From an uncultured Eubacteriales bacterium (lineage in GTDB: Bacteria > Bacillota > Clostridia > Oscillospirales > Oscillospiraceae): a DNA stretch of 64,000 nucleotides. Where the stretch lies: the NCBI GenBank assembly GCA_900546485.1, contig URDK01000004.1, forward strand, positions 4,589-68,588. The letters run 5' to 3'. The notes under the pieces were generated by a model, which was not told the origin of the DNA, did no database searches, and saw only the letters and a program-made list of their open reading frames with translations. Shown piece after piece: positions 14,233 through 64,000 of this stretch. Both the position numbers and the translations under genes were made by a program. The first letter of the stretch is position 1, and every line of letters starts with the position of its first letter.

Positions 14233-14237
14233 ACTCA

Positions 14238-14270
14238 AACGGCGCCGCTTGACATGCGGCGCCGTTCTGT
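14238..14270 (+). terminator. Hairpin after the HK gene
   Basis: aacggcgccgc-ttgacat-gcggcgccgtt, followed by a weak T tract. Confidence 0.45.
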
Positions 14271-45373: not shown

Positions 45374-45415
45374 CGAACCCCCTCCTTAAAACTTGGGATA
45401 TGCGCCGGGAAGGTC

Positions 45416-46354: not shown

Positions 46355-46462
46355 AAAAATTATCTCCTTTGCAAGCGGTAAATTTATGCTATTGCTTATT
46401 TATTATATCCCAAACGTGTGATATAATCAATAACACCTTTTTAAGAATTTGGAGGTAACAAT

Positions 46463-47704: not shown

Positions 47705-47724
47705 ATTCCATATACTTTAATGAT

Positions 47725-47758
47725 AGCGCAGCGCCGCCCTTTTGGGCGGCGCTGTTTT
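47725..47758 (+). terminator. Rho-independent terminator after pfk
   Basis: agcgcagcgccgccc-tttt-gggcggcgctgttttg. Confidence 0.7.
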
Positions 47759-47840
47759 GCATTTCACGGCCTGGTGGGCTTATGCATAACATGGGTTGAG
47801 GGCCTCCGCCCTCGCTACGACATTTAGGAGGCAACGAAAA

Positions 47841-48293
47841 TTGGAAAAAACCGATACACAGGGCACCTGCACCTATAAGCAGGGCAGCCTGCCTGAGTGC
47901 GCGCCGCTCGCGCTTGCTCAGATACCGGCGCAGCAGAGCAGCGAACCGGCATATAAGAGCGGCGAGGCGCTCACGCGCGGCACGCTTTTCCCGGGACTTG
48001 ATCTTCCCTTCAAGAACATCGTCAACCAGATGCCTGCCGAGACCACGGAGCTGCGTGAGCTCATGGCGCTTGACTTCGTTACGGATGAGCTGAACCTGTA
48101 TCTCGATACTCACTCCGAGGATACTCAGGCCTTCGAGACATTTAAAACCTTCCTCAAGCTCTACGACGAGGGCCGCAAGGAGTATGTGTCACGCTTTGGA
48201 CCTCTCAGTCTCTCCGACCTGGCCTCTGCAAAGAGCTATACCTGGCTGAACGACCCCTGGCCCTGGGAATATGTGAGCAGCAAGGAGGGCTGA
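47841..48293 (+). CDS. cotJB: Spore-coat-associated CotJA-CotJB fusion protein
   Basis: The N-terminal part matches CotJA (...EALTRGTLFPGLDLPF) and the C-terminal part matches CotJB (LMALDFVTDELNLYLDTH...NDPWPWEY), in one frame with no stop. TTG start with an AGGAGG RBS. Confidence 0.65.
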   Translation: MEKTDTQGTCTYKQGSLPECAPLALAQIPAQQSSEPAYKSGEALTRGTLFPGLDLPFKNIVNQMPAETTELRELMALDFVTDELNLYLDTHSEDTQAFETFKTFLKLYDEGRKEYVSRFGPLSLSDLASAKSYTWLNDPWPWEYVSSKEG

Positions 48294-48295: not shown

Positions 48296-48412
48296 ATGTT
48301 TGTATATGAGAAAAAGCTGCAGTATCCCGTAAAAATCAAGAACACTAACCCCGCCCTTGCCAAGTTCATAATCAGCCAATACGGCGGGCCTTATTGCAGT
48401 ATGCTGCAATAA
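48296..48412 (+). pseudogene. cotJC: Truncated cotJC (Mn-catalase-family spore coat protein). Only the first ~33 codons are present.
   Basis: MFVYEKKLQYPVKIKNTNPALAKFIISQYGGP matches the CotJC N-terminus. The frame then runs into a palindrome and stops. The expected ~150 further codons are absent from the window. Confidence 0.7.
48391..48412. repeat. Perfect 22-bp palindrome TTATTGCAG-TATG-CTGCAATAA at the cotJC truncation point, a candidate recombination (att) site
   Basis: Read directly. A GC-rich hairpin follows it (gccgcgg...ccgcggc, 48416-48446). Confidence 0.6.
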
Positions 48413-48451
48413 TCATGCCGCGGCTCACTAACTGTAAACCGCGGCAAATAA

Positions 48452-48700
48452 TTACTCTGACGTATAAAACCTTGCTCTTCCCTCAAAAAGCTTGTTGAGC
48501 AGCTCGGCTTTGAGCCATGTAGCCAGGCGAAGCTGCTGCTCTGGGCTCAGCTCCTTTGTGTCGGTCAGTTTACCGTTCACGCGAACAAAGGATACAGAGT
48601 TGATCGACAATTGCTTTTTCAAGCAAATCACCACCCAGTATCTATGATATTGTTCGCATATACTGTAAATGACCAGGCAGTCAACTTTTGCAGCCCGCAA
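48452..48700 (-). CDS. Small hypothetical protein overlapping the 3' end of the upstream gene
   Basis: 82-aa ORF with coding-like composition. No recognisable family. Confidence 0.3.
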   Translation of the reverse strand: MRAAKVDCLVIYSICEQYHRYWVVICLKKQLSINSVSFVRVNGKLTDTKELSPEQQLRLATWLKAELLNKLFEGRARFYTSE

Positions 48701-49928
48701 TAAGCCGCTCCATGCGGCAAAGGGTAAGTCGGTTTCTTATGGCAGCTGATATGGACAGCACTTCCCTGCCCATTCCGCCGTCAATGCCCAGTTCTTCAAG
48801 GCTGTGCTTTGCGCCTATGGCTTTGAAAAGCGCCTCAAGCTCAGCAGCTGGCGGTATTTCATCGATGATCTGCCGGATTTCCGGCCATTTATCCCGAATG
48901 TTTTCCGGCGGGAATGTGCCCAGCACATCATTTTTGTTTTCTTCAAGCACACCGTCGGCAAGCTCTCCAAAGATATATCGTACCCAATTATCATCGAGCG
49001 GCTCGAAAGGAAGAATTTCTATACTTTCTTTTTCAGCTAATGCGTGGTACTCCTTCGCACATATCAGTGTACCTACGCCGACGCACTCACCGTGAATACC
49101 TTTGGCATTCTCAAAGCCCCGAGGTTTCATTTCAACAAGGTGTGCAATCAGATGCTCTGCCCCTGAAGCTGCCCGGCTGTGCGAAAGCATCTGCATGGTA
49201 AGGCCGGAAAGCATTTGTGCATATGCCATTGCCTCATAATCCGGCTCACAGCCATCGGCAAGCTCCTTTGCACAGCGTGTCATGAGGTCCAGCGATTCCT
49301 GCGCCATATCGCACACGCGCTCACAGAAGTATTCCCCGGACACGAGATTAGCGATTTTCCAGTCAGCAATGGAGATGTGCTTTGCCAAGATATCCTGCAC
49401 GCCGGCCAGTGTAAGAAAGCGCGGAGCACCGGAGACAACGTTGAGGTCACATACAACGGCATCAGGGGCCTGCATTGGTATTGAGCGCTTCTGGCCGTCA
49501 ATGATTATGGAGCATATATTGGCTGTGAAGCCATCAGCAGAAACGAGCGTTGGTACTGCAACAAAAGGAATTCCCAGTTTGTATGCTGAATACCGACCAA
49601 AATCCATCAGCGTCCCGCTGCCTACAACAACTATGTAGTCCGGAGTTCGTTCAAAGAGCTTCATCATATCTTCGATCATGCCCTTTTCACTGTGGAGGCC
49701 CTCAGCCTTCAGCACGATCTCCTGACCAGCACATATGTGCTTGACAGAGGGTAATGCATAAGTGTTCGTGTCGTATATGACAGTCCTGAAACCGGACAGG
49801 CCGCAGTCCGACATGTAGCTGTCGAAACTATCCATGGCTCCATACTCACAGACGACCAGCTTTGTCCTGAGTTCGTGGACACGACCGCAGGAGCAAGGGC
49901 CTGCGTATTTGGAAGTGTCAAGAATCAT
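48681..49928 (-). CDS. Iron-containing ADH / sn-glycerol-1-phosphate dehydrogenase (AraM/EgsA)-like NAD(P) dehydrogenase
   Basis: VVVGSGTLMDFGRYSA...PFVAVPTLVSADGF nucleotide/metal motifs of the DHQS-like superfamily. Confidence 0.6.
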   Translation of the reverse strand: MILDTSKYAGPCSCGRVHELRTKLVVCEYGAMDSFDSYMSDCGLSGFRTVIYDTNTYALPSVKHICAGQEIVLKAEGLHSEKGMIEDMMKLFERTPDYIVVVGSGTLMDFGRYSAYKLGIPFVAVPTLVSADGFTANICSIIIDGQKRSIPMQAPDAVVCDLNVVSGAPRFLTLAGVQDILAKHISIADWKIANLVSGEYFCERVCDMAQESLDLMTRCAKELADGCEPDYEAMAYAQMLSGLTMQMLSHSRAASGAEHLIAHLVEMKPRGFENAKGIHGECVGVGTLICAKEYHALAEKESIEILPFEPLDDNWVRYIFGELADGVLEENKNDVLGTFPPENIRDKWPEIRQIIDEIPPAAELEALFKAIGAKHSLEELGIDGGMGREVLSISAAIRNRLTLCRMERLIAGCKS

Positions 49929-49957
49929 TTTATGCTCTCCATTCGATGGAGGCGTGG

Positions 49958-50245
49958 TCATACGATGGGGTCTTCGTACCTCTGGGCCACGGCCTTACCT
50001 TCGTAGTATTTTTTGAGCGCCTTAAAATCCACAGCATAGTGCGGATATTCTAAGTGTTTTGCTGCAGCTTCACTGTCGCGGAAGGTTTCAAACAGAGTAA
50101 GCTCACGTTCTTCAGCATTCCAGAAGGCGGTGTATTCCAGACAGCCAGGTTCTTTTCTGGTTGCAAGTATACAGGGCTTTATGTCATTGAGGTACGCCTC
50201 TTCCATGCCTGCAAGTATTTTAAATTTTACAACGATTTTGACCAT
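49958..50245 (-). CDS. ABM-domain (antibiotic biosynthesis monooxygenase-like) protein
   Basis: 95 aa, ferredoxin-like ABM fold (FKALKKYYEG...). Confidence 0.55.
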   Translation of the reverse strand: MVKIVVKFKILAGMEEAYLNDIKPCILATRKEPGCLEYTAFWNAEERELTLFETFRDSEAAAKHLEYPHYAVDFKALKKYYEGKAVAQRYEDPIV

Positions 50246-50262
50246 ATTCCCTCCATCAGACG

Positions 50263-51615
50263 TCAGTCTTTCTCAAGACCGTTTCTGCGTATCACATCGG
50301 CATACCATTTTCCACTGTCTTTCATGATGCGGCGCTGGTCTTTATAATCTACATACACAAGGCCAAAGCGCTTTTTATAGCCCAGCGCCCATTCAAAGTT
50401 GTCAAACGATGACCAAACCATATATCCACGGACATCAGCTCCGTCGGATATAGCCCTGTGCAACGCGGATAGGTGGCTCTCAAGATAACGGATCCGTTTT
50501 TCGTCTCTTACCAGCTCGTTCCGAATTACCTCGTCATCAAAAGCAGCTCCGTTTTCTGTTACTATTATCGGCTTGCCATAGTCTTTCCAGCAACGCATCA
50601 CGGTATCATAAAAGCCGTCAGGACAAATCGGCCAATTCATGGCGGTGTATTGCAGATTTGTGGGTTTTATGGACTTGACCATGAGCGGCCAACGATCATC
50701 GCCGGCGCCTATGAAGTAGCTGTAATAGTAATTCAAGCCGAAGAAATCAGTGGGGGTAGATATAAGCTCCATGTCACCGGGCGCTATGTCCGGAAGAACT
50801 ACACCGTGATTTTTGTACCAGTCCTGCATATCCGACGGATAGCATCCCTTGTATACGGCATCCAGAAACCAGCGATTCCAGCATCCATCCCAGCGCCTGC
50901 AGGCTTTAACGTCCTCGGGATCTGCCGATATGGCATAATGATGCGGCAAATAGTTGGTTATTCCTATCTGGCCGGATGAACCAGAGGCGCGGAAGGCTCT
51001 GACCATCTTGCCGTGAGCCAACAGTAGATTGTGAGCAGACAGCAAGGCGGATGAGAAATCGTGGATACCTGGCGCATGCTTTCCATCCCAAAAACCGTGA
51101 TAGGAAATGATTTGAGGCTCGAGGATAGTTCCCCAATACGGTACTTCTTTCGGAAACGCCGCAAACACACGCTCGGCTAGTTCAGCCAGCCGGTCAGAGG
51201 TATCGCGGTTGAGCCATCCGCCCCTCTCCTGCAGCTTCTGAGGCAGGTCCCAGTGATAGAGCATTATGAACGGGGCCACACCGTTTTCCAGCATTGAATC
51301 GACAACGCGCCTGTAAAAATCCAGACCCTTTTGATTGAATTTGCCGTCACCGTCGGGAATTATCCTGGGCCATGAAATGGAGATACGTTGGGTATGAAGC
51401 CCCAACTCCCCCATTATCTTGGCATCCTCAGCATACCGGTGGTAGAAATCGCAGGCTACATCACCGGTATCTCCATTTTCAATGTTCCCCGGAGTGCGGC
51501 AGAATCTGTCCCATATGCTCTCGCCTTTTCCGTCCTCGTTCCAAGCTCCCTCCGACTGGTACGACGACGCAGATGCTCCCCACATAAAGTTTTCTGGAAA
51601 TATCAGTTTCGCCAT
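50263..51615 (-). CDS. GH1 beta-glucosidase / 6-phospho-beta-glucosidase
   Basis: FMWGASASSYQSEG, the catalytic TENG acid/base (IIVTENGAA) and nucleophile regions. 450 aa. Confidence 0.85.
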   Translation of the reverse strand: MAKLIFPENFMWGASASSYQSEGAWNEDGKGESIWDRFCRTPGNIENGDTGDVACDFYHRYAEDAKIMGELGLHTQRISISWPRIIPDGDGKFNQKGLDFYRRVVDSMLENGVAPFIMLYHWDLPQKLQERGGWLNRDTSDRLAELAERVFAAFPKEVPYWGTILEPQIISYHGFWDGKHAPGIHDFSSALLSAHNLLLAHGKMVRAFRASGSSGQIGITNYLPHHYAISADPEDVKACRRWDGCWNRWFLDAVYKGCYPSDMQDWYKNHGVVLPDIAPGDMELISTPTDFFGLNYYYSYFIGAGDDRWPLMVKSIKPTNLQYTAMNWPICPDGFYDTVMRCWKDYGKPIIVTENGAAFDDEVIRNELVRDEKRIRYLESHLSALHRAISDGADVRGYMVWSSFDNFEWALGYKKRFGLVYVDYKDQRRIMKDSGKWYADVIRRNGLEKD

Positions 51616-51631
51616 GCACGCCTCTCCTTCT

Positions 51632-52690
51632 TCAAAGGCTTATAGCGGTGCCAAGCCTGTCAGAATCGTATATAGCATTCAGCATACGCTGGACAGTCAG
51701 GCCGTCCTCTGCAGGTGAAATAGGTCTTTTACCCTCGAGAATGCAGTTTACAAAGTGAGCAGTTTCTCTTTCAAATGCGGGCTGCCAGCTGTCTTCCGGG
51801 ACGAGCACCGGCACAGTATCCGTGAGAAAGCCGTCTTCCTCCCCATACAGCTCCAGCGGGCGGAAACAAGCTCCGCCCTTGGTCCCGTAAATCTTGGAAA
51901 ACATTTTTTCCTCGCGACCGTTTATTGCCCAGCTTATGTCCACGCTCATCGAAGCACCGTTTTCAAAGCGAATAAGTGCAGATGCCGCTTCCTCATTGTC
52001 GAACACGCCATTCTTGGCGCCGGCCGCGGCCCAACCCTTTACGCTTCTTGTTTCATAGCTTCCTATATGTCTGTGCGTGACACCCGTAACCAAAACCGGC
52101 TTTGGGCGGCCCATTAGGTACCAAGTTAGGTCAATGACGTGAACCCCAATGTCAAGAACTGCGCCGCCTCCAGACTTGGACTTATCCGTGAACCATCCGC
52201 TCGGTGTGCCTCGGCGTCTTATCCAACCGCAGCGCGCATGATAAATATCGCCGAAACGTCCAGCTTCTCTCAGTTCGGAGAGCATAATGCTTTCCTGCCT
52301 GAAGCGGTTTACAAAGGCCATCATAAACGTTACGCCGTTCTCGTCGGCGGCTCGCTTCATGTTTTCGGCCTCCTGGACACTAATGGCCATAGGCTTTTCG
52401 CAAAGTATGTGTTTACCTGCCTTAGCTGCGGCCACTGCAAGGCTTTCGTGCGACACATTGCCTGTACATATGCTTATGCAGTCAATGTCAGCATCGCTGA
52501 GCACATCCTCGTATTTATCATACGCCTTAGGTATACCGAACCTGGTGCACAGGGCCTGAGCACGATCCAGGTGCCTGTCGAACACAGCGGCCACCTGAGC
52601 GTTTTCGCATTTCAGGAAGGCCGGAATCTGATTGTCTCTGGCCACTGTTCCAGCCCCGATTATGGCAACTCTTACCTTATTTTCTGTCAT
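51632..52690 (-). CDS. Gfo/Idh/MocA-family NAD(P)-dependent oxidoreductase (1 of 3)
   Basis: VRVAIIGAGTVA Rossmann fold and EKP motif. Confidence 0.8.
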   Translation of the reverse strand: MTENKVRVAIIGAGTVARDNQIPAFLKCENAQVAAVFDRHLDRAQALCTRFGIPKAYDKYEDVLSDADIDCISICTGNVSHESLAVAAAKAGKHILCEKPMAISVQEAENMKRAADENGVTFMMAFVNRFRQESIMLSELREAGRFGDIYHARCGWIRRRGTPSGWFTDKSKSGGGAVLDIGVHVIDLTWYLMGRPKPVLVTGVTHRHIGSYETRSVKGWAAAGAKNGVFDNEEAASALIRFENGASMSVDISWAINGREEKMFSKIYGTKGGACFRPLELYGEEDGFLTDTVPVLVPEDSWQPAFERETAHFVNCILEGKRPISPAEDGLTVQRMLNAIYDSDRLGTAISL

Positions 52691-52701
52691 TAGTGCCTCC
52701 A

Positions 52702-53727
52702 TCAGAGCACTTCGCTCATTTCAACTGGCCTGTCCTCTGCAATGGACTTGAGCGCGGCAAAGCTTACCGCGAGGCTGTTTAGATTATCAAATACAGTAGG
52801 AACGCAGCCTTCCTCACCAGACAGCTGACCTTTTATATCATGAAGCACACCGGCTCTGTCCTTCCCGGGGAAGGCAAAATCTTCGCACAGAGCGCCGTCA
52901 ACGCCTACGGACATGTCGAGGCGGTTCGGCTCGTCATTCTCCCACTTGACAGCGCCTTTGTCGGTCTGAAGTATCCAGTCACACTGATATCCGGTCGGGA
53001 AACCTATGGATTTCTCGGCAACGGAGTAGCTTGCCTTGAAGCCGTTTTCAAACTCTATAAGTGCAAAAGCGGCGCCCAGACCGTTTATATCACTCCACTC
53101 CGGATTCCAGCCTCTTGCGTATATGGATTTGACATTGGAACCGCTTATAAAGCGGAGCATATCAAAGTGATGAATAGCGACCTCCAGCATGAGGAGGCTG
53201 GTCTGCTCACGGCGCCAGTCCTTTCTCTGCCACGCAGTCTTTTCGCTGTTCTTTTCATTGGATATACCATGACGGAAAACAACATTAGCCCACGCCGGCT
53301 CGCCAATGCCGGTTTCTCCAAACGAGGCCTTCATCTGCCACAACTGGGGGCGGAAACGATAGTTTTGGCTTACCCACGCCCTTTCAGAACGTCCCTCCAT
53401 AAAGCCGCAGAACTCTTTTGCCTCCTCCAGATTGTCGCAGAGAGGCTTTTCAATAAGAACGTTCTTCCCCGCCAGGACGGCCTTTTTTGCATATTCCACA
53501 TGGAATTTGTGAGGAAGCGCAACAATGACCAGATCAGCTTCACATTTTAGCGCCTCATCATAGTCTGTGTAGCAAATCTCGTCCCGGATACCCCACTTTT
53601 CTTTTGCAGCTGCGAGACTTGCTCCACCTCGGCTGACAAGGGCAACAAGCTCACAGTCGGGCTCGTTGTGTATGTATTCCAGCCAACCTGCGGCCCAGCC
53701 GCTGCTTCCAACCTGAATTACTTTCAT
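52702..53727 (-). CDS. Gfo/Idh/MocA-family oxidoreductase (2 of 3)
   Basis: MKVIQVGSSGWAAGW and EKPL motifs. Confidence 0.75.
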   Translation of the reverse strand: MKVIQVGSSGWAAGWLEYIHNEPDCELVALVSRGGASLAAAKEKWGIRDEICYTDYDEALKCEADLVIVALPHKFHVEYAKKAVLAGKNVLIEKPLCDNLEEAKEFCGFMEGRSERAWVSQNYRFRPQLWQMKASFGETGIGEPAWANVVFRHGISNEKNSEKTAWQRKDWRREQTSLLMLEVAIHHFDMLRFISGSNVKSIYARGWNPEWSDINGLGAAFALIEFENGFKASYSVAEKSIGFPTGYQCDWILQTDKGAVKWENDEPNRLDMSVGVDGALCEDFAFPGKDRAGVLHDIKGQLSGEEGCVPTVFDNLNSLAVSFAALKSIAEDRPVEMSEVL

Positions 53728-53750
53728 ATGACTCTCCTTAACGCAGTTGC

Positions 53751-54866
53751 TCAATCCTCAAGCTGATCTAGGCCAATCGGAGTAAAGCTTGTCTTGAGCT
53801 CGATAGTCTTGCCTGTACGCATAGACTCAAAGCCCGCCTCAATTATTTCAATGACGTGGCAGGCCTGTTCCGCGGTGCCAAGCGGTGCCTTGTCTTCGCG
53901 TACATAGTCGATTAGCTCCATGACATCCCGGTAAACGAAGGGCTCGTGCATTTTGAGGTGTACCGGAGGAATGCTCTTTGCGGCCATGCCCATTATGGGA
54001 TTTTCAAAGAGTTGCTGGTCGTTGAATTTTCCCTTTTCTATTTTACCTTCAGTACCGTAGATTGAAGGAGACATCATATTCTCTCCGCCGGCAAGTGCTG
54101 AATAAAACATGCCGTAAACGTTGTCGCCGAAGTCGAGGAGAAAAGCAAAGTTATCTTCAACTTCACTTTCTATTATCTGCTCACCAAACTTGAACTCCTT
54201 CATAATCTGGCCGCCCATGCAAGACACGCGCTTTACAGGGCCAAGTATGCCGGTCATAGAAGTGAGACCATATACTGCGTGGTCGTACTGAGGTCCGCCG
54301 TCTGGCTTCTTGTAATACCAGGTGGGGACGAGCGGCTCCGAGCCATAGTTTTCCTGACGGTATCCTTCGCGGAGATGATACAGCAGAACTCCACGAACGC
54401 CACCGATGGCATAAGTCAGTCTGCCGAGCTTGTTTTCGAGAACCATGCGCCTGGAAATGCGGTTGATGGGCATGGCCATCATACCGGGCGAGGCCGTGAT
54501 CTTAACATTCATGCGCTTGGCTTCTTCTATAAGTTCGGCTGCCTCGGCGCTGGTCATGGACATGGTTTTGTTAAAGTGTACATGCTTTCCTGCGCGGATC
54601 GCCTTCATGCCCTGCTCATAGTGAAATCTGATGGGTGAGCAGATAGAAACCGCGTCGACATTGGGGTCGGCGAGCAGCTCGTCGTCGGTCATATACCAAT
54701 TCTTTATCCCGTACTGCTTTGCCATGGCCTCAGCTCGTCCGGGAACGGGGTCGCATACAGCGGCAAGATAGACCTTATCCGTGGAGTCCCCAAGTTCAAG
54801 GTGCTTGAATATAGAATTTATTGCTATTTCGCCCGAGCCTATGGCTCCAAGTCCCAACGGTTTCAC
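53751..54866 (-). CDS. Gfo/Idh/MocA-family oxidoreductase (3 of 3)
   Basis: GLGAIGSGEIA...AVCDP...HVHFNKTMSMT. Confidence 0.75.
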   Translation of the reverse strand: MKPLGLGAIGSGEIAINSIFKHLELGDSTDKVYLAAVCDPVPGRAEAMAKQYGIKNWYMTDDELLADPNVDAVSICSPIRFHYEQGMKAIRAGKHVHFNKTMSMTSAEAAELIEEAKRMNVKITASPGMMAMPINRISRRMVLENKLGRLTYAIGGVRGVLLYHLREGYRQENYGSEPLVPTWYYKKPDGGPQYDHAVYGLTSMTGILGPVKRVSCMGGQIMKEFKFGEQIIESEVEDNFAFLLDFGDNVYGMFYSALAGGENMMSPSIYGTEGKIEKGKFNDQQLFENPIMGMAAKSIPPVHLKMHEPFVYRDVMELIDYVREDKAPLGTAEQACHVIEIIEAGFESMRTGKTIELKTSFTPIGLDQLED

Positions 54867-54892
54867 AACTGCATCCTCCTATCTTTCTCTTG

Positions 54893-55888
54893 TCAAAAGC
54901 CCTCTACAATTTCCAGCATTTTGGCCACATACTGCCGTGAAATCTTCCTGTTGTATTCCACGCGGTCATCACGTTCCGCGTCATTGGTAGGCAGCTTGAA
55001 CGCCGGTTCCGCCAGCAGCGGCATTCCATGAGGAGTCGGAGCTTTCTCGATGATCGTTCTTAGTATACGTTCAAAATCGATGTATCCATCGCCCAGATAG
55101 CACCCAGTAGTCACCATTGGCATGTCCGGGTACAACTTGGTTCGCAGCGGATTGTCAACGACGGCAAAGTCCTTGAAATGAGCCGCAACAGCATATGGAG
55201 CTAGATACTCCAGATCCTCCATGGGGTCACAGCAAGCGACAGCACCGTTTCCAAAGTCATAAAGAGCCCGTATATTTTTAGAGCCAATGTCTTCGATTAT
55301 TGAGGCAATTTCTCGCCCATTGAAGTCACAGTGGTTTTCGTAAGCAAATACGAGTCCTGTTCCCTCAAGCATTTCCGCCATTATCTTTAGGTTTGCTGTT
55401 ATGAACTTTCTCTGCTCAGAAAATGGAAACGCCTTATTATAACGGCTGGTTGCCACATTGTTGTGACCGTAGCCTCCACACAAAAAACGGCTGTTAAGTG
55501 CAAGGGCCATTTTTATAGTCCTTTCCACACCTTTCGCAGCCACGGAGCTGTCCGGTGCGTCATCCGGCGCTGAAACTCCCATTGCAGCTCCCGCAGCTCC
55601 CCAGGAATCAACTCGCAGAGGGAGCCCGGCGAGGCCCCATACTGTGAACGGATATAGAAGCAGCTCAACATCGCGTTCTCTGGCTATTCCGGCCATCTCG
55701 CTTAATGTATCCGAGCTCAGCTCCTTTGGTATCATGTGCGGGAACAGTGAAACGGCGCGCGCTCCAAGTCTGGAGCATTCCTCCAGAGTCCATATATATG
55801 ACTCCATGCCGGCAGGAGTGCCGGCAGGAGGCATTAGGTTAAATGGTTGAAAACCGACTCTGAAATCATATGTATTTCCCATCGGCAC
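54893..55888 (-). CDS. Sugar phosphate isomerase/epimerase (xylose-isomerase-like TIM barrel)
   Basis: 331 aa TIM-barrel protein with the metal-ligand pattern typical of IolE/DgpB-like enzymes. Confidence 0.65.
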   Translation of the reverse strand: MPMGNTYDFRVGFQPFNLMPPAGTPAGMESYIWTLEECSRLGARAVSLFPHMIPKELSSDTLSEMAGIARERDVELLLYPFTVWGLAGLPLRVDSWGAAGAAMGVSAPDDAPDSSVAAKGVERTIKMALALNSRFLCGGYGHNNVATSRYNKAFPFSEQRKFITANLKIMAEMLEGTGLVFAYENHCDFNGREIASIIEDIGSKNIRALYDFGNGAVACCDPMEDLEYLAPYAVAAHFKDFAVVDNPLRTKLYPDMPMVTTGCYLGDGYIDFERILRTIIEKAPTPHGMPLLAEPAFKLPTNDAERDDRVEYNRKISRQYVAKMLEIVEGF

Positions 55889-55903
55889 ACCCCTTACCCT
55901 ATA

Positions 55904-56611
55904 TTACTTAAGGCCAAGGACTATCGGCGTGGATTTGAATCCGATACCCATTCTGTCAATGCCCATATCAATGAGCTTAAGGAATTTTTCTCTGTCGCGT
56001 ATTCCGCCGGCTCCCTTGATCTTGCAGCGGCCGTCGGCTGCCTCCATCATGGCCTCGATGACCTCGTAGGTGGCACCCTCATTCTTGCCGCCGGTAAAGA
56101 AGCCGGTGGAGGTTTTTACGAAGTCCGCGCCGGCCGCTATAGCAACTTCAGTGGCCTTCTTGACTTCATCAATAGTGAGCGCATCTACCTCGAAGATGAC
56201 CTTCACATTGGTGCCGTACTTGTGGCAGACATCGCAAACCGCCTTTATATCAGCCTGTACGTCATCCCACTTTCCGCTGCGAATCCAACCATAGTTGGCG
56301 ACAATGTCCAGATCCTCAATGTCGCCATCACGGCAAATGATTTCAGCCTGCATGACCTTTGATTCTGTGCTGGAAAGTCCAAAGGGGAAGTCACAGACCA
56401 CGCATATTCCGGTGTCGGTGCCCTTGGTCAGCTCTCTGGCAATTGGAAGCGACGCAGGATTGATGCACACCGTGGCGCAATGATAATCGATACCCTCCTG
56501 GATGTACTTCCTGATGTCGTCCTGAGTAAACTCAGGCTTGAGCACGGACTGGTCTATATACCTTCCGAGCTCTTCAACACTCATCTCACAGGCTTTTTTA
56601 GTAGGTTTCAT
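55904..56611 (-). CDS. DeoC/LacD-family class I aldolase (deoxyribose-phosphate aldolase-like)
   Basis: Schiff-base lysine context ADFVKTSTGF. The start could instead be 56647. Confidence 0.7.
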   Translation of the reverse strand: MKPTKKACEMSVEELGRYIDQSVLKPEFTQDDIRKYIQEGIDYHCATVCINPASLPIARELTKGTDTGICVVCDFPFGLSSTESKVMQAEIICRDGDIEDLDIVANYGWIRSGKWDDVQADIKAVCDVCHKYGTNVKVIFEVDALTIDEVKKATEVAIAAGADFVKTSTGFFTGGKNEGATYEVIEAMMEAADGRCKIKGAGGIRDREKFLKLIDMGIDRMGIGFKSTPIVLGLK

Positions 56612-56676
56612 ACTGAATCTCGGCGCTTTGCGCCTGGCTCCTTTCACAAAAGAAATATCGGTTAAGTTAAAGATGA

Positions 56677-57657
56677 TTATTTGTTGCCCTTTTTGCTCCT
56701 AACAACGTCGATATAAACCGCGATGAGGAGCAGCGCACCTTTGACAAGAGACTGAGCGTAGGTGTTCATGCTAAGGAGGTTCATGCCGTTGGCAAGTACG
56801 GAGAAGAACAGCATGCCGAGCAGAGTGCCGACAATGTTGCCTTTGCCGCCTGCGACGGAGAGACCACCTATGATGACGGCTGCGATAGCGTCCATATCAG
56901 CGCCGGAGCCCTGGTTCGGAACGGCGACATAGCCCTGAGCTATGTAGAGAATGGTTGCCAGACCGGCGCAGCCGCCGGAGATCATAAAGGCTACTGCCCT
57001 GGTCTTCTTAACATTGATACCGGACAGATACGCCGCTTCTTCGCTGCCGCCAACAGAAATAACGTTCCGTCCGAAGCGCGTATATTTCAATACAATACCT
57101 ATGACCACATAGACTATCGCCGCAATCACTATCATAGTGGGTATGCCAAGAATGTCGCCACGGCCTATCCATTTGATGAAGTCGTCGCTTATCTGGATCA
57201 TGTTGCCGTCCGAAACTATGTACGCAAGCGCGCGGAACACAAGCTGCGTGCCCAGCGTAGTGATGATTGGCGAGATGTGCATGTAGTTCATTACGAGGCC
57301 GTTGCAGATACCGCAGGCCACGCCAACGGCGACAGCGACCAGCAGGAGCACGGGCCCGGATACGCCGGCGTTGTAAGCCACACCGACGACCATGCCGCTG
57401 AAAGCCATTATTGACATCTGTGACAGGTCAAGTCCACCAAGCAGCATGGATACCGTCACGCCGGCCGCGATGATGCCGGATGCGGACATGTATACGCCAA
57501 TATTTTTTATGTTCGACGCCGACAGGAAGTAGGGCGACGCAAAAGACCAAACAATTGACAGAGCAATTACTGCTATCAGCACGCTGCCATATGAGTTGAA
57601 TGCGTTCTTGCCCGCTCCCTTAAGACGGGCGCCGAATCCATTTCCGGTGTTTTCCAT
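56677..57657 (-). CDS. Ribose-type (RbsC-like) ABC transporter permease
   Basis: 10-TM profile, family-2 monosaccharide permease. Confidence 0.8.
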   Translation of the reverse strand: MENTGNGFGARLKGAGKNAFNSYGSVLIAVIALSIVWSFASPYFLSASNIKNIGVYMSASGIIAAGVTVSMLLGGLDLSQMSIMAFSGMVVGVAYNAGVSGPVLLLVAVAVGVACGICNGLVMNYMHISPIITTLGTQLVFRALAYIVSDGNMIQISDDFIKWIGRGDILGIPTMIVIAAIVYVVIGIVLKYTRFGRNVISVGGSEEAAYLSGINVKKTRAVAFMISGGCAGLATILYIAQGYVAVPNQGSGADMDAIAAVIIGGLSVAGGKGNIVGTLLGMLFFSVLANGMNLLSMNTYAQSLVKGALLLIAVYIDVVRSKKGNK

Positions 57658-57660
57658 CTG

Positions 57661-59145
57661 TTACTCTCCTATTGCGCTCTTTACTATATTCACCTGGGTA
57701 ATCTCATCGCCCTCATATTCAGCGACCAGTTTGCCCTCGTGCACAACATATACTCTGTCAGCTATGCCGAGCAGCTCCGGCAGCTCCGCTGCCACATACA
57801 GCACCCCGCACCCAGCCTTGCACAGCGCTTCGATGTCCTTGTAGATCTCAACTTTTGCGCCTACGTCAATGCCTTTTGTCGGATCATTGAGCATAAATAC
57901 CTTGGGCCTTGTGGCAACCCATTTCGAGATGACAATCTTCTGCTGGTTTCCGCCGGAAAGCGAGGATGCCGGAGTATAGGGCGAAGGGGTTTTTATCCGG
58001 TAGTTACTTATCCATTTCAGCGCTGTTTCCCTTTCGCGCTTCAGGTCAATAAACAGGCCTCTTACAAAGTCCTTAAGAGTCACAATGGTCAGGTTGCTGA
58101 GCACCGAGTGACCGAGCATCAGACCTTCGCGTTTTCTCTCCGCGGGAACATAGGCCAGTCCGGCCTTTTTGGCGTCCATTGGCTGGTGGATTTCTGTTTT
58201 CTGTCCCTGTACGTAGAACTCACCTTTACGGTATTTACGGACGCCGAACGCACACTGGATTATCTCCGAGCAACCAGAGCCCATAAGTCCGTACAATCCA
58301 ACAATCTCATGGCGGCGAACGTTCAGAGAAATATCGTGCAGGAAACCGTCATCCAGACCTTTGATCTCAAACACGACGTCGCCGAGCTCACGTTTGGACA
58401 CTGGATACATATCCTTCAACTCGCGCCCACACATGCTGTTGATTATGGCATCTTTAGTTGTGTCCTTTATTCCACCTTCGTAGACACTTTCGCCATTTCG
58501 CAGGACCTGTACGCGGTCAGCTATGGCAAACACCTCATCAAGCTTGTGTGAGATATAGATGATACCCTTGCCCTCGGACTTTAGCTTGCGGATTATATCC
58601 ATGAGCTTGTCCGTTTCTTCCTGGTTAAGAGCGGATGTGGGCTCATCCATTATGATAACTTTAAGTTCCTTGGAGTAGGCTCTGCCTATCTCAACAAGCT
58701 GCTGCTCTGCGGTAGACAGCTGACCCAACAAGGTGGAGGGGCGAAGATGCCCCAATCCAACCTGTTCCTGAATGTTCATGCTGTCGGCGTACAGCTTCTT
58801 GTAATCTATCAATCCACCGTGAGTTGGCTGAGAACCGAGAAATATATTTTCGGCAATTGAAAGCCCTTTAACATTGGTCAACTCTTGGTATATTGCCGTT
58901 ATACCCAGAGCCAGAGCCCTTGAGGGAATCATTTTGCCTTCATCTTTTTCTTCAAAAAGTATCTGGCCCTCGTCCTGCTGATAAGCACCGGACATTATCT
59001 TGATAAGCGTGGACTTACCTGCCCCGTTCTCTCCAACTACGGCAAGAACTTCGCCACTGTTCACTTTCAAGCTGACGTTGTTCAGTGCTATAACACCAGG
59101 GAACCGCTTGGTAATTCCCTTCATTTCAAGCAGGGTATTGCTCAA
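57661..59145 (-). CDS. Sugar ABC transporter ATP-binding protein with duplicated ATPase domains (RbsA-like)
   Basis: Two Walker A motifs (GENGAGKST and a degenerate second one) plus LSGGNQQK. Confidence 0.85.
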   Translation of the reverse strand: MSNTLLEMKGITKRFPGVIALNNVSLKVNSGEVLAVVGENGAGKSTLIKIMSGAYQQDEGQILFEEKDEGKMIPSRALALGITAIYQELTNVKGLSIAENIFLGSQPTHGGLIDYKKLYADSMNIQEQVGLGHLRPSTLLGQLSTAEQQLVEIGRAYSKELKVIIMDEPTSALNQEETDKLMDIIRKLKSEGKGIIYISHKLDEVFAIADRVQVLRNGESVYEGGIKDTTKDAIINSMCGRELKDMYPVSKRELGDVVFEIKGLDDGFLHDISLNVRRHEIVGLYGLMGSGCSEIIQCAFGVRKYRKGEFYVQGQKTEIHQPMDAKKAGLAYVPAERKREGLMLGHSVLSNLTIVTLKDFVRGLFIDLKRERETALKWISNYRIKTPSPYTPASSLSGGNQQKIVISKWVATRPKVFMLNDPTKGIDVGAKVEIYKDIEALCKAGCGVLYVAAELPELLGIADRVYVVHEGKLVAEYEGDEITQVNIVKSAIGE

Positions 59146-59207
59146 TTTTGCAACACCTCCAAATTCGCTGTTACCTGCATGGAAAAGTTGGTACTCCTTA
59201 TACCTTG

Positions 59208-60236
59208 TTATTCGGCGGGGTAGTAATCATACACGTTGGCAGCGGTAACCATAACGCCGCTGTGCTCCGTGAAGGCTTCAGGGTTTTCACCGTTCATGAT
59301 GGCGTTAACCTTATCAAGCAGCTTGTAGCCGTAAGTGGAAGTCTGAAGGTCAATAGAGCCGTACCAAGTGCTGTACTCACCGGAGTCTGCATACTGCTTG
59401 ATGTGATTGAGGAAGGTCTCAGTGCAGTCGCAGGAGAGCAGCATGACGTTCTCAGAAGCTCCAGCGTCAGCGACAGCATTGACTATTACAGGGGCAAAGG
59501 TGTCGGTGCAAGTGATGTAAAGAATGTTCTTAGCGTCGGGATGAGAGGTAAGGACACTGGCGGTATTGGCTCCGATGGTGCTGGTGTCAAGGCCGGTGTC
59601 AATCTTGACCCACTCAACGTCTGCAAGATACTCATATCCGGGAGTAGCCATAAGCGTTTCAACAGCCTTGTCGGTGCGAGAGGCCATTGCGGGGACAGCA
59701 TTGTAAGCGTTGGCAGTGATGATAAGATCAATCTTGCCGCCCCACTCCTCGGTAACGGCCTCAGCTGCAAAGTTTCCAAAGAACTCACCGAGACCGTCAT
59801 TAGAAGTGCCGTAGCTGTATGCACCCTCAACCGGGCAATTAAAGGCAACCGCCATAAAGGGCATGCCGGATTCAACAGCTTCCTCAGCATACGCATTGGC
59901 CACTTCTTCAATGGAATAGCCGTCAACGATGATATCTACGTCCTGAGCTATGAGAGAATCATAGGCGGAGCGCATACCGGCGCTATCCTTAGCAATCTGA
60001 TAGACCATTTCAACGCCCTGCTCCTCACAAGCAGCAGTAAAGCTCTCAAGGACCTCTTTCCAGAAGCCGTCGGAAGGATCGGAAGTTATGTATCCAATTT
60101 TGTAGCTCGAGGTGTTCTCGCCGTCAGTTGCGGGGGCGTCGCTTGCCTGTGCATCTGCGGGCTCTGAACCACAGCCGGACAATACTAGGCAAAAGAGCAT
60201 AACGATAGCCAGCAGCATAGACAGTTTCTTTTTCAT
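59208..60236 (-). CDS. Sugar ABC transporter substrate-binding lipoprotein (RbsB-like, PBP type I)
   Basis: Lipobox LSGCGS. 342 aa. Confidence 0.8.
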   Translation of the reverse strand: MKKKLSMLLAIVMLFCLVLSGCGSEPADAQASDAPATDGENTSSYKIGYITSDPSDGFWKEVLESFTAACEEQGVEMVYQIAKDSAGMRSAYDSLIAQDVDIIVDGYSIEEVANAYAEEAVESGMPFMAVAFNCPVEGAYSYGTSNDGLGEFFGNFAAEAVTEEWGGKIDLIITANAYNAVPAMASRTDKAVETLMATPGYEYLADVEWVKIDTGLDTSTIGANTASVLTSHPDAKNILYITCTDTFAPVIVNAVADAGASENVMLLSCDCTETFLNHIKQYADSGEYSTWYGSIDLQTSTYGYKLLDKVNAIMNGENPEAFTEHSGVMVTAANVYDYYPAE

Positions 60237-60510
60237 TTGTTTCTCCTCCTGTTTAAATTAATTCTTCTACTCATTTAAATTTAATGAGCTTATGCGACAC
60301 ATTAATAGCTTTCACAATTTTGCAATTTGCATCAATATCGATTACTTACTGATGACATGATAACCGAGAATTTTGCAATTATCAACATTATTTTGCGTTT
60401 TCTTGCGCTTACTTTGCAATTTTGTGACTTTAAACAGATTTAGGTTCAAATTTTCTCCCTAAAGAAACAGATAACTGTTAATTATTGTTATTTCAAAGTG
60501 AAGATTAATT

Positions 60511-60544
60511 AAAAAAGCAGGCCGTGAACAAGCACGGCCTGCTT
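60511..60544 (-). terminator. Rho-independent terminator after the DeoR gene
   Basis: agcaggccgtg-aacaagc-acggcctgct preceded on the plus strand by an A6 tract. Confidence 0.7.
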
Positions 60545-60565
60545 TCAGATAAGCTGTATACAAAT

Positions 60566-61324
60566 TTATACTACGTCAAAATTGTCAGGGACATTGACCA
60601 ACTTCGGGCACTTATCACAAATTACCCGTTCAAAATTGTTTAGCGTATCCAACTTACAGAAACTACGGCGATTTAACTTTCCGGAGTCTAAAAGAAGGTA
60701 ACAATGATCTCCATTTTGCCTGGCCAAATTTTTAATGGCAAGCGTATCAAGTTCATTTGTGTATGCCAAGCCCTCATTAAGATCGGCACAAGTACAACTA
60801 ATAAATACCCGATCGAAGTGAAACTGTTCCAACATCTGCTGAGTAAGAGTACCCACGCTCATGGCATAATGCGTGAGGTATGTGCCCCCTATCAGAACAA
60901 TGTCAGCTACAGGATTGTTCATCGATCGAACAAACAGCTCACTGTGTGTGACAATCTTCACATTACGCTTTTCCAGGAACTTTGCCAGCGCGGCAGCGCT
61001 GGTACCGCCGTCAACAAATATACATTCTCCATCTTGAATATACTCATTGGCTTTTTGGGCCACGCGGAGTTTTCCCTCAAAATTGAGAGACTTTTTGGCG
61101 CGCATGGTCAGCTCTGCGTCATTACTGGATTCGTCGGCTTTTTCGTTCAACTTGGCCCCGCCGGTAACTCTTTTGAGCTTGCCTTCATTTTCAAGCTTTT
61201 CAAAATCTCTTCTGACTGTTGCCTCGGAGATGCCAAGTTCTTTTGCGACGTCCTTTAGGTTAATTATACCTTTCTCATTGAGTTGAGAAATAATATATCT
61301 TGTTCTTTCTGAAGCAAGCACCAT
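60566..61324 (-). CDS. DeoR/GlpR-family transcriptional regulator
   Basis: N-terminal HTH (INLKDVAKELGISEATVRRD) and a C-terminal sugar-phosphate-sensor domain. Confidence 0.85.
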   Translation of the reverse strand: MVLASERTRYIISQLNEKGIINLKDVAKELGISEATVRRDFEKLENEGKLKRVTGGAKLNEKADESSNDAELTMRAKKSLNFEGKLRVAQKANEYIQDGECIFVDGGTSAAALAKFLEKRNVKIVTHSELFVRSMNNPVADIVLIGGTYLTHYAMSVGTLTQQMLEQFHFDRVFISCTCADLNEGLAYTNELDTLAIKNLARQNGDHCYLLLDSGKLNRRSFCKLDTLNNFERVICDKCPKLVNVPDNFDVV

Positions 61325-61400
61325 GTGCTCCCCCTCACATTTTGAGTACTTCTATAATTTAGATACTACTACGTATTTTGCCAAATGTCCACAGAAAATG

Positions 61401-62249
61401 TCAAGTTTTAATTGGATTAAGCGCAAAATACTCATAAAACAGCTTCAGCAGAGCGGGCTTGTTGCAGTCCCACTCAATGTTGAAGCGCGAAGCAGGTACA
61501 ACGACCATCCAACCGCCGCAAGCGGCACGAAGATCATCCACACTCATGTCGCAGAGCTTGGCGTACTCGCTCTCATAAGCTCTAACAAAACGCTTAATAC
61601 TGCCGCGAGCGCTTTGCATTCTTTCCGCACGCTCGGGATCGACCTTCCCCGGCTCGATATTTCCTCCGAAGTCAAACATTTGGATTGTGCGCGCAACGTC
61701 AGCAAATGGATCTCCCGCGCTGGCATCACTCCAGTCAATGGTGAAAATACCGCGTTCATTATAAATCAGATTGCCAGGATGATAGTCGTTGTGGCAGAGA
61801 CTGTTTCCGTCCGGAAGTTTTTCAAGAAGACGCAGCATCCTGTTGGTGAGATCTGAGCCAAGGTTGTATTCTGAAAGCCGCAGCAGCCGCTCATACCTCA
61901 CTTTGCTGTCCTCAAGTCCATCCACTGGACAGCTATGCATATCAAAGTGAACCTTTGCAAATCCCACAGCCAGCTCTTCAGGAGAAGCTTCACCTGTAAC
62001 GAGAAGCTTCATCATGCTCTCTCCTTTTATGTATTCCTGGAGCATGGCACGTTTACCTTCATGGTTGTTCAGATATCCCCTGTATTCAGGCACAAGAATA
62101 CCACAGCTCTGAACGGTCTGGGTGCAGAGGATTTCTCTTTCTATATCTGCCTGAGGTACATAGTCTCTGTATATCTTGATGATGTTATCGGCGCCATATA
62201 ACTCTACATCAGCCGTGAACCCTGTTGTGTTGCGCTCATTATTTTCCAT
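61401..62249 (-). CDS. APH-fold small-molecule phosphotransferase (aminoglycoside/sugar-kinase family)
   Basis: Brenner motif CHNDYHPGNLI and IDWSDASAGDP. The second ATG was chosen as the start. Confidence 0.65.
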   Translation of the reverse strand: MENNERNTTGFTADVELYGADNIIKIYRDYVPQADIEREILCTQTVQSCGILVPEYRGYLNNHEGKRAMLQEYIKGESMMKLLVTGEASPEELAVGFAKVHFDMHSCPVDGLEDSKVRYERLLRLSEYNLGSDLTNRMLRLLEKLPDGNSLCHNDYHPGNLIYNERGIFTIDWSDASAGDPFADVARTIQMFDFGGNIEPGKVDPERAERMQSARGSIKRFVRAYESEYAKLCDMSVDDLRAACGGWMVVVPASRFNIEWDCNKPALLKLFYEYFALNPIKT

Positions 62250-62267
62250 GTGCACATCCCTTTCAGT

Positions 62268-62290
62268 ATATTGCAACATTCTGCAAATAT
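62268..62290. repeat. Near-palindromic motif ATATTGCAACATTCTGCAAATAT next to the recombinase gene, related to the cotJC palindrome
   Basis: Read directly. It shares TATTGCA...CTGCAA(A)TA with the 48391-48412 site. Confidence 0.4.
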
Positions 62291-64000
62291 TCTATATCAA
62301 TTTTGAAAATCCGTCAAGTATTTGCACGTGAGCAAACTAATTTTGCTGACGAAAATTGAATACAATTAAGTAAGACTATTGTTGGGGGGATGAGCTTGCA
62401 AAAACGTATGGCCGCTGCGTACATAAGAGTATCGACTGAGGAGCAGGCCGAACTTTCACCTGAAAGCCAAATAGAAGAAATACGACGTTATGCGGAGCGC
62501 GAAAACATTGAACTTCTTGATGAGTATATCTATATAGACTCAGGGATATCTGGGAAAAAAGCCGGCAATCGGCCGGAATTTATGCGCATGATATCAGTTG
62601 CCAAGAGCGCTGGCTGTCCATTTTCAGTGATACTATTATGGAAGTATTCGCGATTTGCGCGCAATCAAGAAGAGAGTGTGTTCTACAAATCTATACTTCG
62701 TTCAAGATGCAGCATAGATGTCATAAGTGTTACTGAACCGCTCATAGACGGTCCTTTTGGAAGCCTGATTGAGCGGATAATTGAATGGATGGATGAGTTC
62801 TACTCAATTCGCCTTAGTCAGGAAGTTAAACGCAGCATGAAGGTTAATGCTGAGCGCGGCAAGCTTCAATGCCCGGCCGCATATGGGTATAAAGCCATTA
62901 ATGGAGAACTGATTCCAAATGAACTTGAGGCTGAATTTGTGAGGCTAATTTTCAGCAGGTTTAACTCTGGAAAGGGCACATATAACATCGCACGGGAACT
63001 TAATGCTGCCGGGGCAAGGACGCATAGAGGAAATCGATTTGAAAGCCGTACTGTTGAGTACATATTGAGAAACCCGGTTTATATCGGCCGCCTTCGCTGG
63101 AATCCATACGGACATACGGGTAGAGATTTTTCAAAGCCGGGCTTAATAATCTCAGAATCCGGTCATGAGCCTATCATAAGCATAGCAGACTTTGATGCGG
63201 CTCAAGTGCGGTTAAATAGTAAAGATTCATCAGGCCCTCACTCTTTGAGTCAAAAAGGTGAATTAAAGAGTTGGGCATCAGGACTAATACGATGCGCAAG
63301 CTGTGGAGCTAGGCTGGTATTCTCCAAGCCCGACTATTTCAGATGCAGCAATTACATAAGGGGTCGTTGTCCAAGCTCTCAGCATATCAGAGCCAATCTA
63401 TTGGAAGGAGCGCTTTTATCTCTGCTTATGTCCGATTCCAGCGGCTCGGCTCCCCTGCTGTTCAATCTGGTTGAGCGCAAGGAACATATGGGAGAAGAAC
63501 AGTCCCTGCTTGAGGCCTCCCTGCGAGCTGCAACCTCAAGGCGACGGCGTCTGCGCGACATATACCTGGAAGGAGAAATAGAAATTGAAGAGTTTTCCCG
63601 GCTTAATCGTCAGTTTGATACCGAGATTAAACAGACGCTTGCTAAGATGAATGCACTTCGTTCACAAAAAAGAGAGCCTGATTGGCAGAATTACCTGCAG
63701 AAGTTGGCTTTATCCACTCAATTAAGCTTTGAGCCAGACTTGTATGACATTAAGACACTTAATCAAGCCGTTCAAGCGGTTATTGAGGAATGTGTTTTTG
63801 ACAAAAAGGATATGACTTTGGTGATTATGTATCGTCTTGACTTATAGCCTACAATTGCAACCTTATGCCATAAGGCGGACCGGATGGTGAGCTGGGAGCA
63901 TCTATTCGGTATTTGAGCCAGAGGTATGCTATGCCCAGCCCCGAGCTCAAGGGGCTTCTGACGGATATCGGTACCGAGGAACTGGGACACCTCGAGATGA
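62280..64000 (+). mobile_element. Left end of an integrated or intervening element (low-GC, serine-recombinase-bearing) that continues beyond the window
   Basis: Marked drop in GC by eye from about 61.9 kb onward. A recombinase gene lies at the boundary. Confidence 0.5.
62390..63847 (+). CDS. Large serine recombinase (resolvase/invertase N-domain, recombinase domain and zinc ribbon)
   Basis: YIRVSTEEQ catalytic serine region and a C-terminal CASCGARL...C ribbon. 485 aa. Confidence 0.85.
   Translation: MSLQKRMAAAYIRVSTEEQAELSPESQIEEIRRYAERENIELLDEYIYIDSGISGKKAGNRPEFMRMISVAKSAGCPFSVILLWKYSRFARNQEESVFYKSILRSRCSIDVISVTEPLIDGPFGSLIERIIEWMDEFYSIRLSQEVKRSMKVNAERGKLQCPAAYGYKAINGELIPNELEAEFVRLIFSRFNSGKGTYNIARELNAAGARTHRGNRFESRTVEYILRNPVYIGRLRWNPYGHTGRDFSKPGLIISESGHEPIISIADFDAAQVRLNSKDSSGPHSLSQKGELKSWASGLIRCASCGARLVFSKPDYFRCSNYIRGRCPSSQHIRANLLEGALLSLLMSDSSGSAPLLFNLVERKEHMGEEQSLLEASLRAATSRRRRLRDIYLEGEIEIEEFSRLNRQFDTEIKQTLAKMNALRSQKREPDWQNYLQKLALSTQLSFEPDLYDIKTLNQAVQAVIEECVFDKKDMTLVIMYRLDL

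Follow-up and report, generated by a model that had tools for sequence, protein, structure and literature searches.

A serine recombinase element carrying a sugar-catabolism operon interrupts the spore coat gene cotJC in an uncultured Oscillospiraceae bacterium

To our knowledge, sporulation-gene intervening elements have been studied experimentally only in a few Bacilli, Clostridioides difficile and Clostridium botulinum, nearly all being relics of prophages. Here we describe a 15,491-bp element that splits the spore coat gene cotJC in a 64,000-nucleotide stretch (the window) of contig URDK01000004.1 from an uncultured Eubacteriales bacterium (GenBank assembly GCA_900546485.1); it carries a large serine recombinase gene, a small partner gene and a sugar-catabolism operon. 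Among the intervening elements already known are skin, SPbeta, vfbin, vrin, gin and yin (PMC4191935, PMC5595907, PMC5025042, PMC10747680). In C. difficile, skin is also a large serine recombinase element in a Clostridium mother-cell sporulation gene (sigK; CD1231 and CD1234), and its directionality factor CD1234, a small orphan protein that sigmaE and SpoIIID control, restricts excision to the mother cell (PMC5025042). Skin differs from the window element in target (sigK, not cotJC) and in cargo (a prophage remnant, not a sugar-catabolism operon), and its excision and regulation have been demonstrated whereas those of the window element are predicted from sequence. The gin element in gerE of Bacillus cereus ATCC 10987 (GirC/GirX) is likewise non-prophage and lies in a small mother-cell gene, with a serine recombinase, a small factor and, as in the window, an attachment (att) site in which imperfect inverted repeats enclose a short shared core (PMC5595907). 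Extra recombinases are part of gin; the window element instead has a 13-kb metabolic operon, sits in another gene and has a host of the class Clostridia. SPbeta in spsM and skin in sigK of Bacillus subtilis are phage-derived and are excised by serine recombinases (SprA/SprB and SpoIVCA), which rebuilds a gene of the spore envelope or of regulation (PMC4191935, PMC5499854). That phage origin is paralleled in the clade described below by a phage contig (L044) and by lysis-cassette remnants, whereas the window element has no phage genes. Developmental excision in a terminal cell type is also a feature of the cyanobacterial heterocyst elements (nifD, fdxN/XisF, hupL), XisF being a serine recombinase; these differ in phylum, cell type and genes, and some relatives of the window element have two elements in one gene.

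An earlier note on this DNA, made from the letters alone, had regarded a cotJC-interrupting element with metabolic cargo as an undescribed variant. The gene has in fact been mentioned as a target: cotJC is among the integration targets in the survey of Abe et al. (2013), as cited by bioRxiv 10.1101/2021.11.22.469490, and its interruption was noted in Laceyella sacchari, a member of the Bacilli (Galperin et al., 2022, bioRxiv 10.1101/2022.02.25.481979). These are one-line mentions of a skin-like or mobile element in the same gene. In the literature that we searched, no description was found of the junctions or att sites, recombinase clade, partner gene, metabolic cargo or gut spread of these Clostridia elements. 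What is new here is the non-phage catabolic cargo in a gut Clostridium, together with a large and barely described clade. The features of the locus, in window coordinates, are as follows (ORF, open reading frame; aa, amino acids; RBS, ribosome-binding site; UTR, untranslated region).

48296-48388, plus strand: 5' fragment of cotJC, codons 1-31, MFVYEKKLQYPVKIKNTNPALAKFIISQYGG (tblastn and ORF translation).
48365-48412, no strand: attL, made of the host B arm, core GGCGG and element P' arm GCCTTATTGCAGTATGCTGCAATAA; predicted crossover GG at 48386-48387.
48452-48622, minus strand: conserved 56-aa ORF with TTG start and RBS GGTGGTGA, the first gene inside attL; candidate recombination directionality factor.
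48681-62279, minus strand: cargo with Pfam domains Fe-ADH_2, ABM, GH1 glycosidase, three GFO/IDH/MocA oxidoreductases and a xylose-isomerase-like TIM barrel.
48681-62279, minus strand, same block: cargo with Pfam domains of a DeoC/LacD-type aldolase, a three-gene sugar ABC transporter (permease, ATPase, binding protein), a DeoR regulator and an APH-family kinase.
62390-63847, plus strand: large serine recombinase, 485 aa (483 aa from the TTG at 62396), with Pfam domains Resolvase PF00239, Recombinase PF07508 and Zn_ribbon_recom PF13408.
63848-63900, no strand: attR, made of the element P arm TACAATTGCAACCTTATGCCATAA, core GGCGG and host B' arm ACCGGATGGTGAG; predicted crossover GG at 63877-63878.
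63874-64000, plus strand: 3' fragment of cotJC from codon 30 onward, GGPDGELGASIRYLSQRYAMPSPELKGLLTDIGTEELGHLEM (tblastn match 63874-63999), running off the window end.
47841-48293, plus strand: host cotJA-cotJB fusion of 150 aa, Pfam CotJA and CotJB in one ORF, directly upstream of cotJC.
48417-48445, minus strand: GC-rich hairpin GCCGCGG...CCGCGGC downstream of the small ORF, a possible terminator read from the sequence.
62268-62290, no strand: near-palindrome, the second site of the earlier note; it is no att site and coincides with the transcription start or 5' UTR belonging to the minus-strand cargo promoter.

The break in cotJC falls after codon 31 (QYGG|PDGEL). On the left, the reading frame runs on into unrelated element DNA and reaches a stop at 48412; in contigs L098-L103 this 5' part is called as a 38-aa Mn_catalase fragment. 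The earlier note had placed the 3' portion of the gene, and with it the right end of the element, outside the window, but both are inside it: the tblastn match to the 3' fragment begins 27 nt past the recombinase stop, on the same strand as the 5' half. A public contig (L001), whose recombinase is 99% identical and whose DNA is identical across the checked overlap (window 63801-63990), supplies the 3' remainder, for a full 169 codons up to codon 198. Joined in silico at the core, as precise excision would join them, the halves give an in-frame 198-aa CotJC that aligns free of gaps with intact homologues and is identical at 190/198 residues to one of them, P0247. In B. subtilis, cotJC is expressed in the mother cell, and by that expression the element sits inside the coding sequence of a mother-cell sporulation gene.

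The element spans window positions 48388-63878, with direct copies of the core GGCGG at 48383-48387 and 63874-63878. Its left junction reads ...CAATAC GGCGG GCCTTATTGCAGTATGCTGCAATAA..., with a palindrome, TTATTGCAG-TATG-CTGCAATAA, at 48391-48412, and its right junction reads ...TACAATTGCAACCTTATGCCATAA GGCGG ACCGGATGGTGAG.... The element-side arms, TTGCAaCcTtaTGCcATAAGGC and TTGCAgCaTacTGCaATAAGGC, are imperfect inverted repeats. The attP site reconstructed from the window is ...GCCATAAGGC-GG-GCCTTATTGC..., and the reconstructed attB site, ...CAATACGGC-GG-ACCGGATGG..., codes for QYGGPDG in frame; the predicted attB junction contains CAATACGGCGGACCGGATGG, the predicted attP junction contains GCCATAAGGCGGGCCTTATTGC, and the 8-bp core of the recombinase and candidate directionality-factor pair is GGNGGNCC. 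The attP arms thus surround a short core shared with attB, and are complementary at 16/22 positions in the window and at 22/22 in the L044 phage contig. We infer that the crossover dinucleotide is the GG that opens the Gly31 codon, because this is the symmetry centre of the intact L044 attP.

A search with the reconstituted 198-aa CotJC returned many intact 198-aa homologues among Candidatus Scatomorpha relatives. Of these, P0247 is identical at 170/170 residues to the cotJC 3' fragment of a sister species that carries the same island (L002-L007). The P0247 contigs (L093-L097, 84-186 kb) have an E1-E2 ATPase, FBA, PFK, cotJAB, intact cotJC and TPP/POR genes, an arrangement that equals the left flank of the window fused directly to the right flank of L002 with the island, cargo included, absent. 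The alignments break where expected of an empty site: L002 and L093 are 98.2% identical beginning exactly at the L002 right junction, and the window and L093 are 85.3% identical up to 48390. Since the empty-site strains are without the whole block, the 15.5-kb block and its cargo are one insertion. The earlier note had proposed that the catabolic block and the recombinase form one element in cotJC and that island-free relatives be compared; the sister-species strains, with intact cotJC, matching flanks and no island, bear the proposal out. The window-type element is found in six further public assemblies at 93-98% identity, with left junctions that are identical or near-identical (one has two differences in the P' arm), and this recurrence rules out an assembly artefact. 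The GC fraction is 0.41-0.53 in the element against 0.55-0.61 in the host flank. We concluded that it is essentially certain that a serine-recombinase integrative element lies in cotJC with these boundaries.

The recombinase gene lies at the far side of the element, as the earlier note had it, and ends 27 nt before the attR core, so that the element encodes a recombinase adjoining its own att site. Besides its large serine recombinase domains, the protein has the N-terminal serine motif R13-V14-S15-T16, with the nucleophilic serine, which is invariant in 30 relatives. In PHROG it matches integrase (E = 3e-99), and its NCBIfam matches to CcrB and XisF are far under the family cut-offs (XisF 83 versus 375 bits). 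Its identity to the Bacillus phage integrases of the phage collection is only ∼26%; the nearest GenBank phage integrase, that of bajarodcaudo virus 3, has 47% identity across two thirds of the protein, and no obvious cotJC-like attP was seen in that virus. An exact protein look-up of the 485-aa form gave no match, the gene having been called publicly as the 483-aa form. Between the window and L002, the homology of the cargo extends ∼490 nt into the recombinase gene (window 62390-63847, L002 10001-11476); the remaining, DNA-binding part is too diverged for blastn (58% amino acid identity overall), and the att arms differ too. These differences suggest that the recognition module and its sites have been swapped, or have quickly co-evolved, between the two elements.

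The block to the left of the recombinase is uniformly on the minus strand, in agreement with the earlier note: 13 ORFs fill 48452-62279, comprising 12 cargo genes with Pfam hits and the small ORF without a hit. The sister contigs L002-L007 keep the cargo gene order of the window, at a DNA identity of 77.6% between the window and L002. Among the element ORFs there are no phage structural, packaging or lysis genes (12/12 cargo Pfam domains are metabolic, transport or regulator domains, and PHROG matches the integrase only), and Pfam finds no relaxase, coupling protein or type IV secretion genes. A sigma-70-like promoter, TTGACG-17-TAGAAT (10/12 matches), lies on the minus strand at 62317-62289, ahead of the APH, DeoR and cargo genes, and its -35 block CGTCAAGTATTTGCA (62303-62317) is invariant across the window, L002 and L008.

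When the ORFs of complete elements were clustered, the family of the small protein was the one family found besides the recombinase. Its members have ∼55-70 aa and the motif V.YV..G..L....L..EQ+..LA.WLK..YLN.LF.G+A.F, and an iterated hidden Markov model search placed the family in 40 loci, always on the strand opposite to the recombinase. Searches of Pfam, PHROG and NCBIfam with the small ORF matched no family, and it is this, not a sequence comparison, that sets the window protein apart from CD1234. A word-based homologue search returned just two near-identical proteins, and an exhaustive search of 1.84 billion cluster representatives returned 48 matches, nearly all of 52-103 aa; public assemblies also annotate the ORF as a gene (P0255, P0256). 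Promoters of sigmaE and sigmaK typically have -10 elements of the CATA type. Upstream of the small ORF, most Oscillospiraceae elements have TAGGAC(A/G), 12 nt, (C/A)ATA(G/C)NNT, an RBS and the start codon, and TAGGACR is present in 18/35 distinct upstream regions where 0.005 is expected per 120 nt; in B. subtilis, SpoIIID has the consensus TAGGACAAGC (PMC11180830). The product of 48452-48622 is a candidate recombination directionality factor. No TAGGAC box was found upstream of the recombinase genes. At ∼62331-62359, upstream of the window recombinase, we noted TAATTTT-N14-AATACAAT, which resembles the G(T/C)ATTTTTAT...CATACAAT present upstream of many Lachnospiraceae-type recombinases and which may, tentatively, be a sigmaE-type promoter.

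To place the element in its family, genomes at one per species were scanned with a recombinase profile, which gave 477 relatives, and 79 loci were retrieved (Oscillospiraceae and Lachnospiraceae). In 58 loci, of which at least 50 belong to the 79 genome loci, a piece of cotJC with its break at codons 28-33 is found no more than 400 nt from the 3' end of the recombinase, and these cotJC-adjoining recombinases are 38-58% identical to that of the window. Every left junction breaks at CAGTAYGGNGG| (∼30 loci) and every right junction at |GGNGGNCCNGAYGG (∼45 loci). The recombinase stands either beside the 3' half, as in the window, or beside the 5' half on the opposite strand. The elements recovered in full measure 3.1-8.5 kb, and the minimal Lachnospiraceae forms, with an Amidase_2 endolysin, a Hol44 holin, the small ORF and the recombinase, are by their gene content relics of prophage lysis cassettes. 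The 3.1-kb lysis-cassette elements are at L063 8369-9850, L064 8108-9727 and L086 8338-9596 (the endolysin of L086 was judged from its sequence; Hol44 is in L063). Lysis of the mother cell could be influenced if such a cassette were released or expressed there.

Two loci of the clade have signs of activity. In L022 (4749-13215), a 4,233-bp element forms a head-to-tail dimer in cotJC, with 4231/4233 positions identical and a middle junction of the predicted attP type; either the copies are genuinely integrated in tandem, or the assembler collapsed a mixture of integrated and circular forms. L044 is a 40.9-kb phage contig with tail-fibre, endolysin and methyltransferase genes (PHROGs), a 47%-identical recombinase, the small ORF and, directly after the recombinase (∼11445-11492), an intact attP, ATTGTAGCAAGATGGAGTATGG-TCCA-CCATACTCCATCTTGCTACAAT. 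Its 8-bp core GGTCCACC is the reverse complement of cotJC GGTGGACC, and from its gene content L044 looks like a free, unintegrated phage of the cotJC-targeting clade. Phage genes are present in L063 and L086 as well as in L044.

Some relatives have a second cotJC interruption at about codon 62-65, which leaves the gene in three pieces (L010, L014, L016, L020, L062, L063, L064, L066 and L070); pieces lie, for example, at L020 11462-11581 and 15911-16135 and at L064 11434-11550 and 20685-21092. One or more large serine recombinases are encoded by the second element itself (in L020 at 12497-13960, minus strand, and at 14291-15892, plus strand; in L064 at 14186-15787, minus strand), along with unrelated cargo, namely two-component systems and an AAA ATPase; one of the L020 recombinases adjoins a fragment of sigma-70 region 3/4. 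Outside cotJC, recombinase relatives at 37-41% identity (L068, L080 and L082, downstream, plus strand; L069, L071 and L078, minus strand) adjoin fragments of a gene with a SpoIID/LytB-like tail and a PG_binding_1 domain; this gene may be another split target and perhaps codes for a cortex or peptidoglycan enzyme.

The interrupted gene appears to have been maintained. The 3' fragments of the window species, L002 and L008 have synonymous divergence (dS) of ∼1-2 and nonsynonymous divergence (dN) of ∼0.03-0.05, that is, dN/dS of 0.02-0.04, and 18/18 interrupted 3' fragments examined are open for 168-170 codons to the normal C-terminus, with no stops or frameshifts. The low dN/dS and the open frames fit a cotJC that is still in use. 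From the anatomy of the locus, the clade-wide conservation, the promoter motif and the precedent of known systems, we consider it probable that the element is excised in the mother cell, rebuilding cotJC, with the small protein as directionality factor. In this model, a large serine recombinase would have inserted the 15,491-bp non-phage element at the conserved QYGG|PDGEL codons of cotJC. During sporulation, the small protein would be made in the mother cell from a SpoIIID/sigmaE-K-type promoter and, as directionality factor, would let the recombinase recombine attL with attR; the island would leave as a circle and cotJC would be rebuilt for coat assembly. The forespore chromosome would retain the island with its sugar-catabolism operon, and the cargo would be inherited.

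Several points weigh against this model. Excision in the window organism is something that we infer and have not observed directly: the predicted attP (CCTTATGCCATAAGGCGGNCCTTATTGCAG) had 0 matches in JGI metagenome contigs, and the exact reconstituted CotJC is absent from the protein collection. The directionality-factor role of the 56-aa candidate is unproven, and its promoter in the window is without the canonical TAGGACA at the usual distance, having a -10-like CATAGATAC and, four nucleotides upstream of it, GAACAA. The element is polymorphic among strains, so part of the purifying selection on cotJC may predate insertion, in element-free ancestors. In B. subtilis, cotJC is dispensable for spore formation, and an inactivating insertion might be tolerated. 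The indicators of sporulation for the window organism are the cotJ genes, plus a YunB gene in relatives.

Some of these points would equally suit an ordinary integrative island that uses cotJC as its attB, knocks the gene out and excises for horizontal transfer only, with no developmental role. The polymorphic presence of the element in closely related strains, its purely metabolic cargo with a sigma-70-like promoter of its own, the non-canonical promoter of the window small ORF and the lack of an excision product in the JGI contigs and the protein collection are all in its favor. We nevertheless regard it as rather unlikely. Both cotJC halves are intact and under strong purifying selection in many lineages; the element ORFs include, by Pfam, no conjugation, relaxase or phage machinery that could move the island; and the partner gene is found clade-wide with a SpoIIID-like box and a mother-cell-type -10. 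Moreover, the studied serine-recombinase elements in mother-cell genes all excise during sporulation (PMC5025042, PMC5595907, PMC4191935).

An insertion that has decayed and become immobile, with dead recombinase or att sites and cotJC as a young pseudogene, is improbable. It could account for window att arms that are less perfect (16/22) than those of the L044 attP, and for a recombinase only 58% identical to that of the sister element when the cargo DNA is 78% identical. It is opposed by a full-length recombinase ORF that keeps the clade-conserved residues, by several independent samples in which the element recurs, 93-98% identical and with the same junctions, and by cotJC fragments without stops or frameshifts.

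The earlier note had left open whether the segment is excised or inverted; direct cores and gene halves would excise it, and inversion is excluded because direct repeats of this kind do not flank an invertible segment with inverted sites. An invertible segment flipped between the cotJC palindrome and the 62268-62290 palindrome is therefore highly improbable: TTGCA-N6-TGCAA is indeed common to the two near-palindromes and absent from the rest of the window (0.13 expected, for a pattern chosen post hoc), but the cotJC halves and cores, at 48383 and 63874, are in direct orientation, the internal site is missing from sister elements, has no co-variation with the att arms and lies at the cargo promoter, and no contig inspected has the inverted arrangement.

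The second site pointed to before, ATATTGCAACATTCTGCAAATAT, is present at 62268-62290 as described; it is not a junction, the second att site being at 63848-63900. Host homology resumes 1.6 kb further on. As a recombinase site it also fails, since the palindrome is not conserved in L002 and L008, though the flanking promoter is. Across 51 loci, the att arm of a locus matched its own recombinase-upstream region at 13.3/24 positions, and the arms of other loci did so at 13.1/24. The site sits just downstream of the sigma-70-like cargo promoter, at the start of the APH/cargo transcript, and may be an operator or due to chance.

In the host flank, a cotJA/cotJB fusion was seen in the window and in every relative inspected, and the 150-aa cotJA-cotJB gene is also called in related contigs. 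One relative (L087-L092, CotJC 93% identical) has its PFK, FBA and ATPase genes on the downstream side of an intact cotJC and not upstream of cotJAB. This gene order differs from that of window 43391-48293, and by this comparison the neighborhood of the cotJ operon is rearranged between related species.

Our broader proposal is tentative, and we give it slightly less than an even chance: cotJC would be a hot spot in gut Clostridia for an undescribed, developmentally excised clade with its own new directionality-factor family under SpoIIID and sigmaE/sigmaK control, and the elements, lost from the terminal mother cell alone, would be heritable 'safe-harbour' carriers. If this is true, the carriers span whole phages, lysis-cassette remnants and an entire operon for sugar catabolism; two independent recombinase elements are stacked within the one 600-bp gene in some genomes, and a second, peptidoglycan-binding gene is split by sister recombinases. 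The window case, which falls in a clade of dozens to hundreds of cotJC-targeting elements, has an intervening-element architecture with a working-looking metabolic operon, in common human-gut Oscillospiraceae. The recombinase and its candidate directionality factor could be a new orthogonal serine-integrase system. In such genomes, cotJC will be miscounted, as missing or as a pseudogene, by annotation pipelines and by censuses of sporulation genes in metagenome-assembled genomes. For the organism, the prediction is that an accessory sugar-use trait would be physically tied to the integrity of a spore-coat gene.

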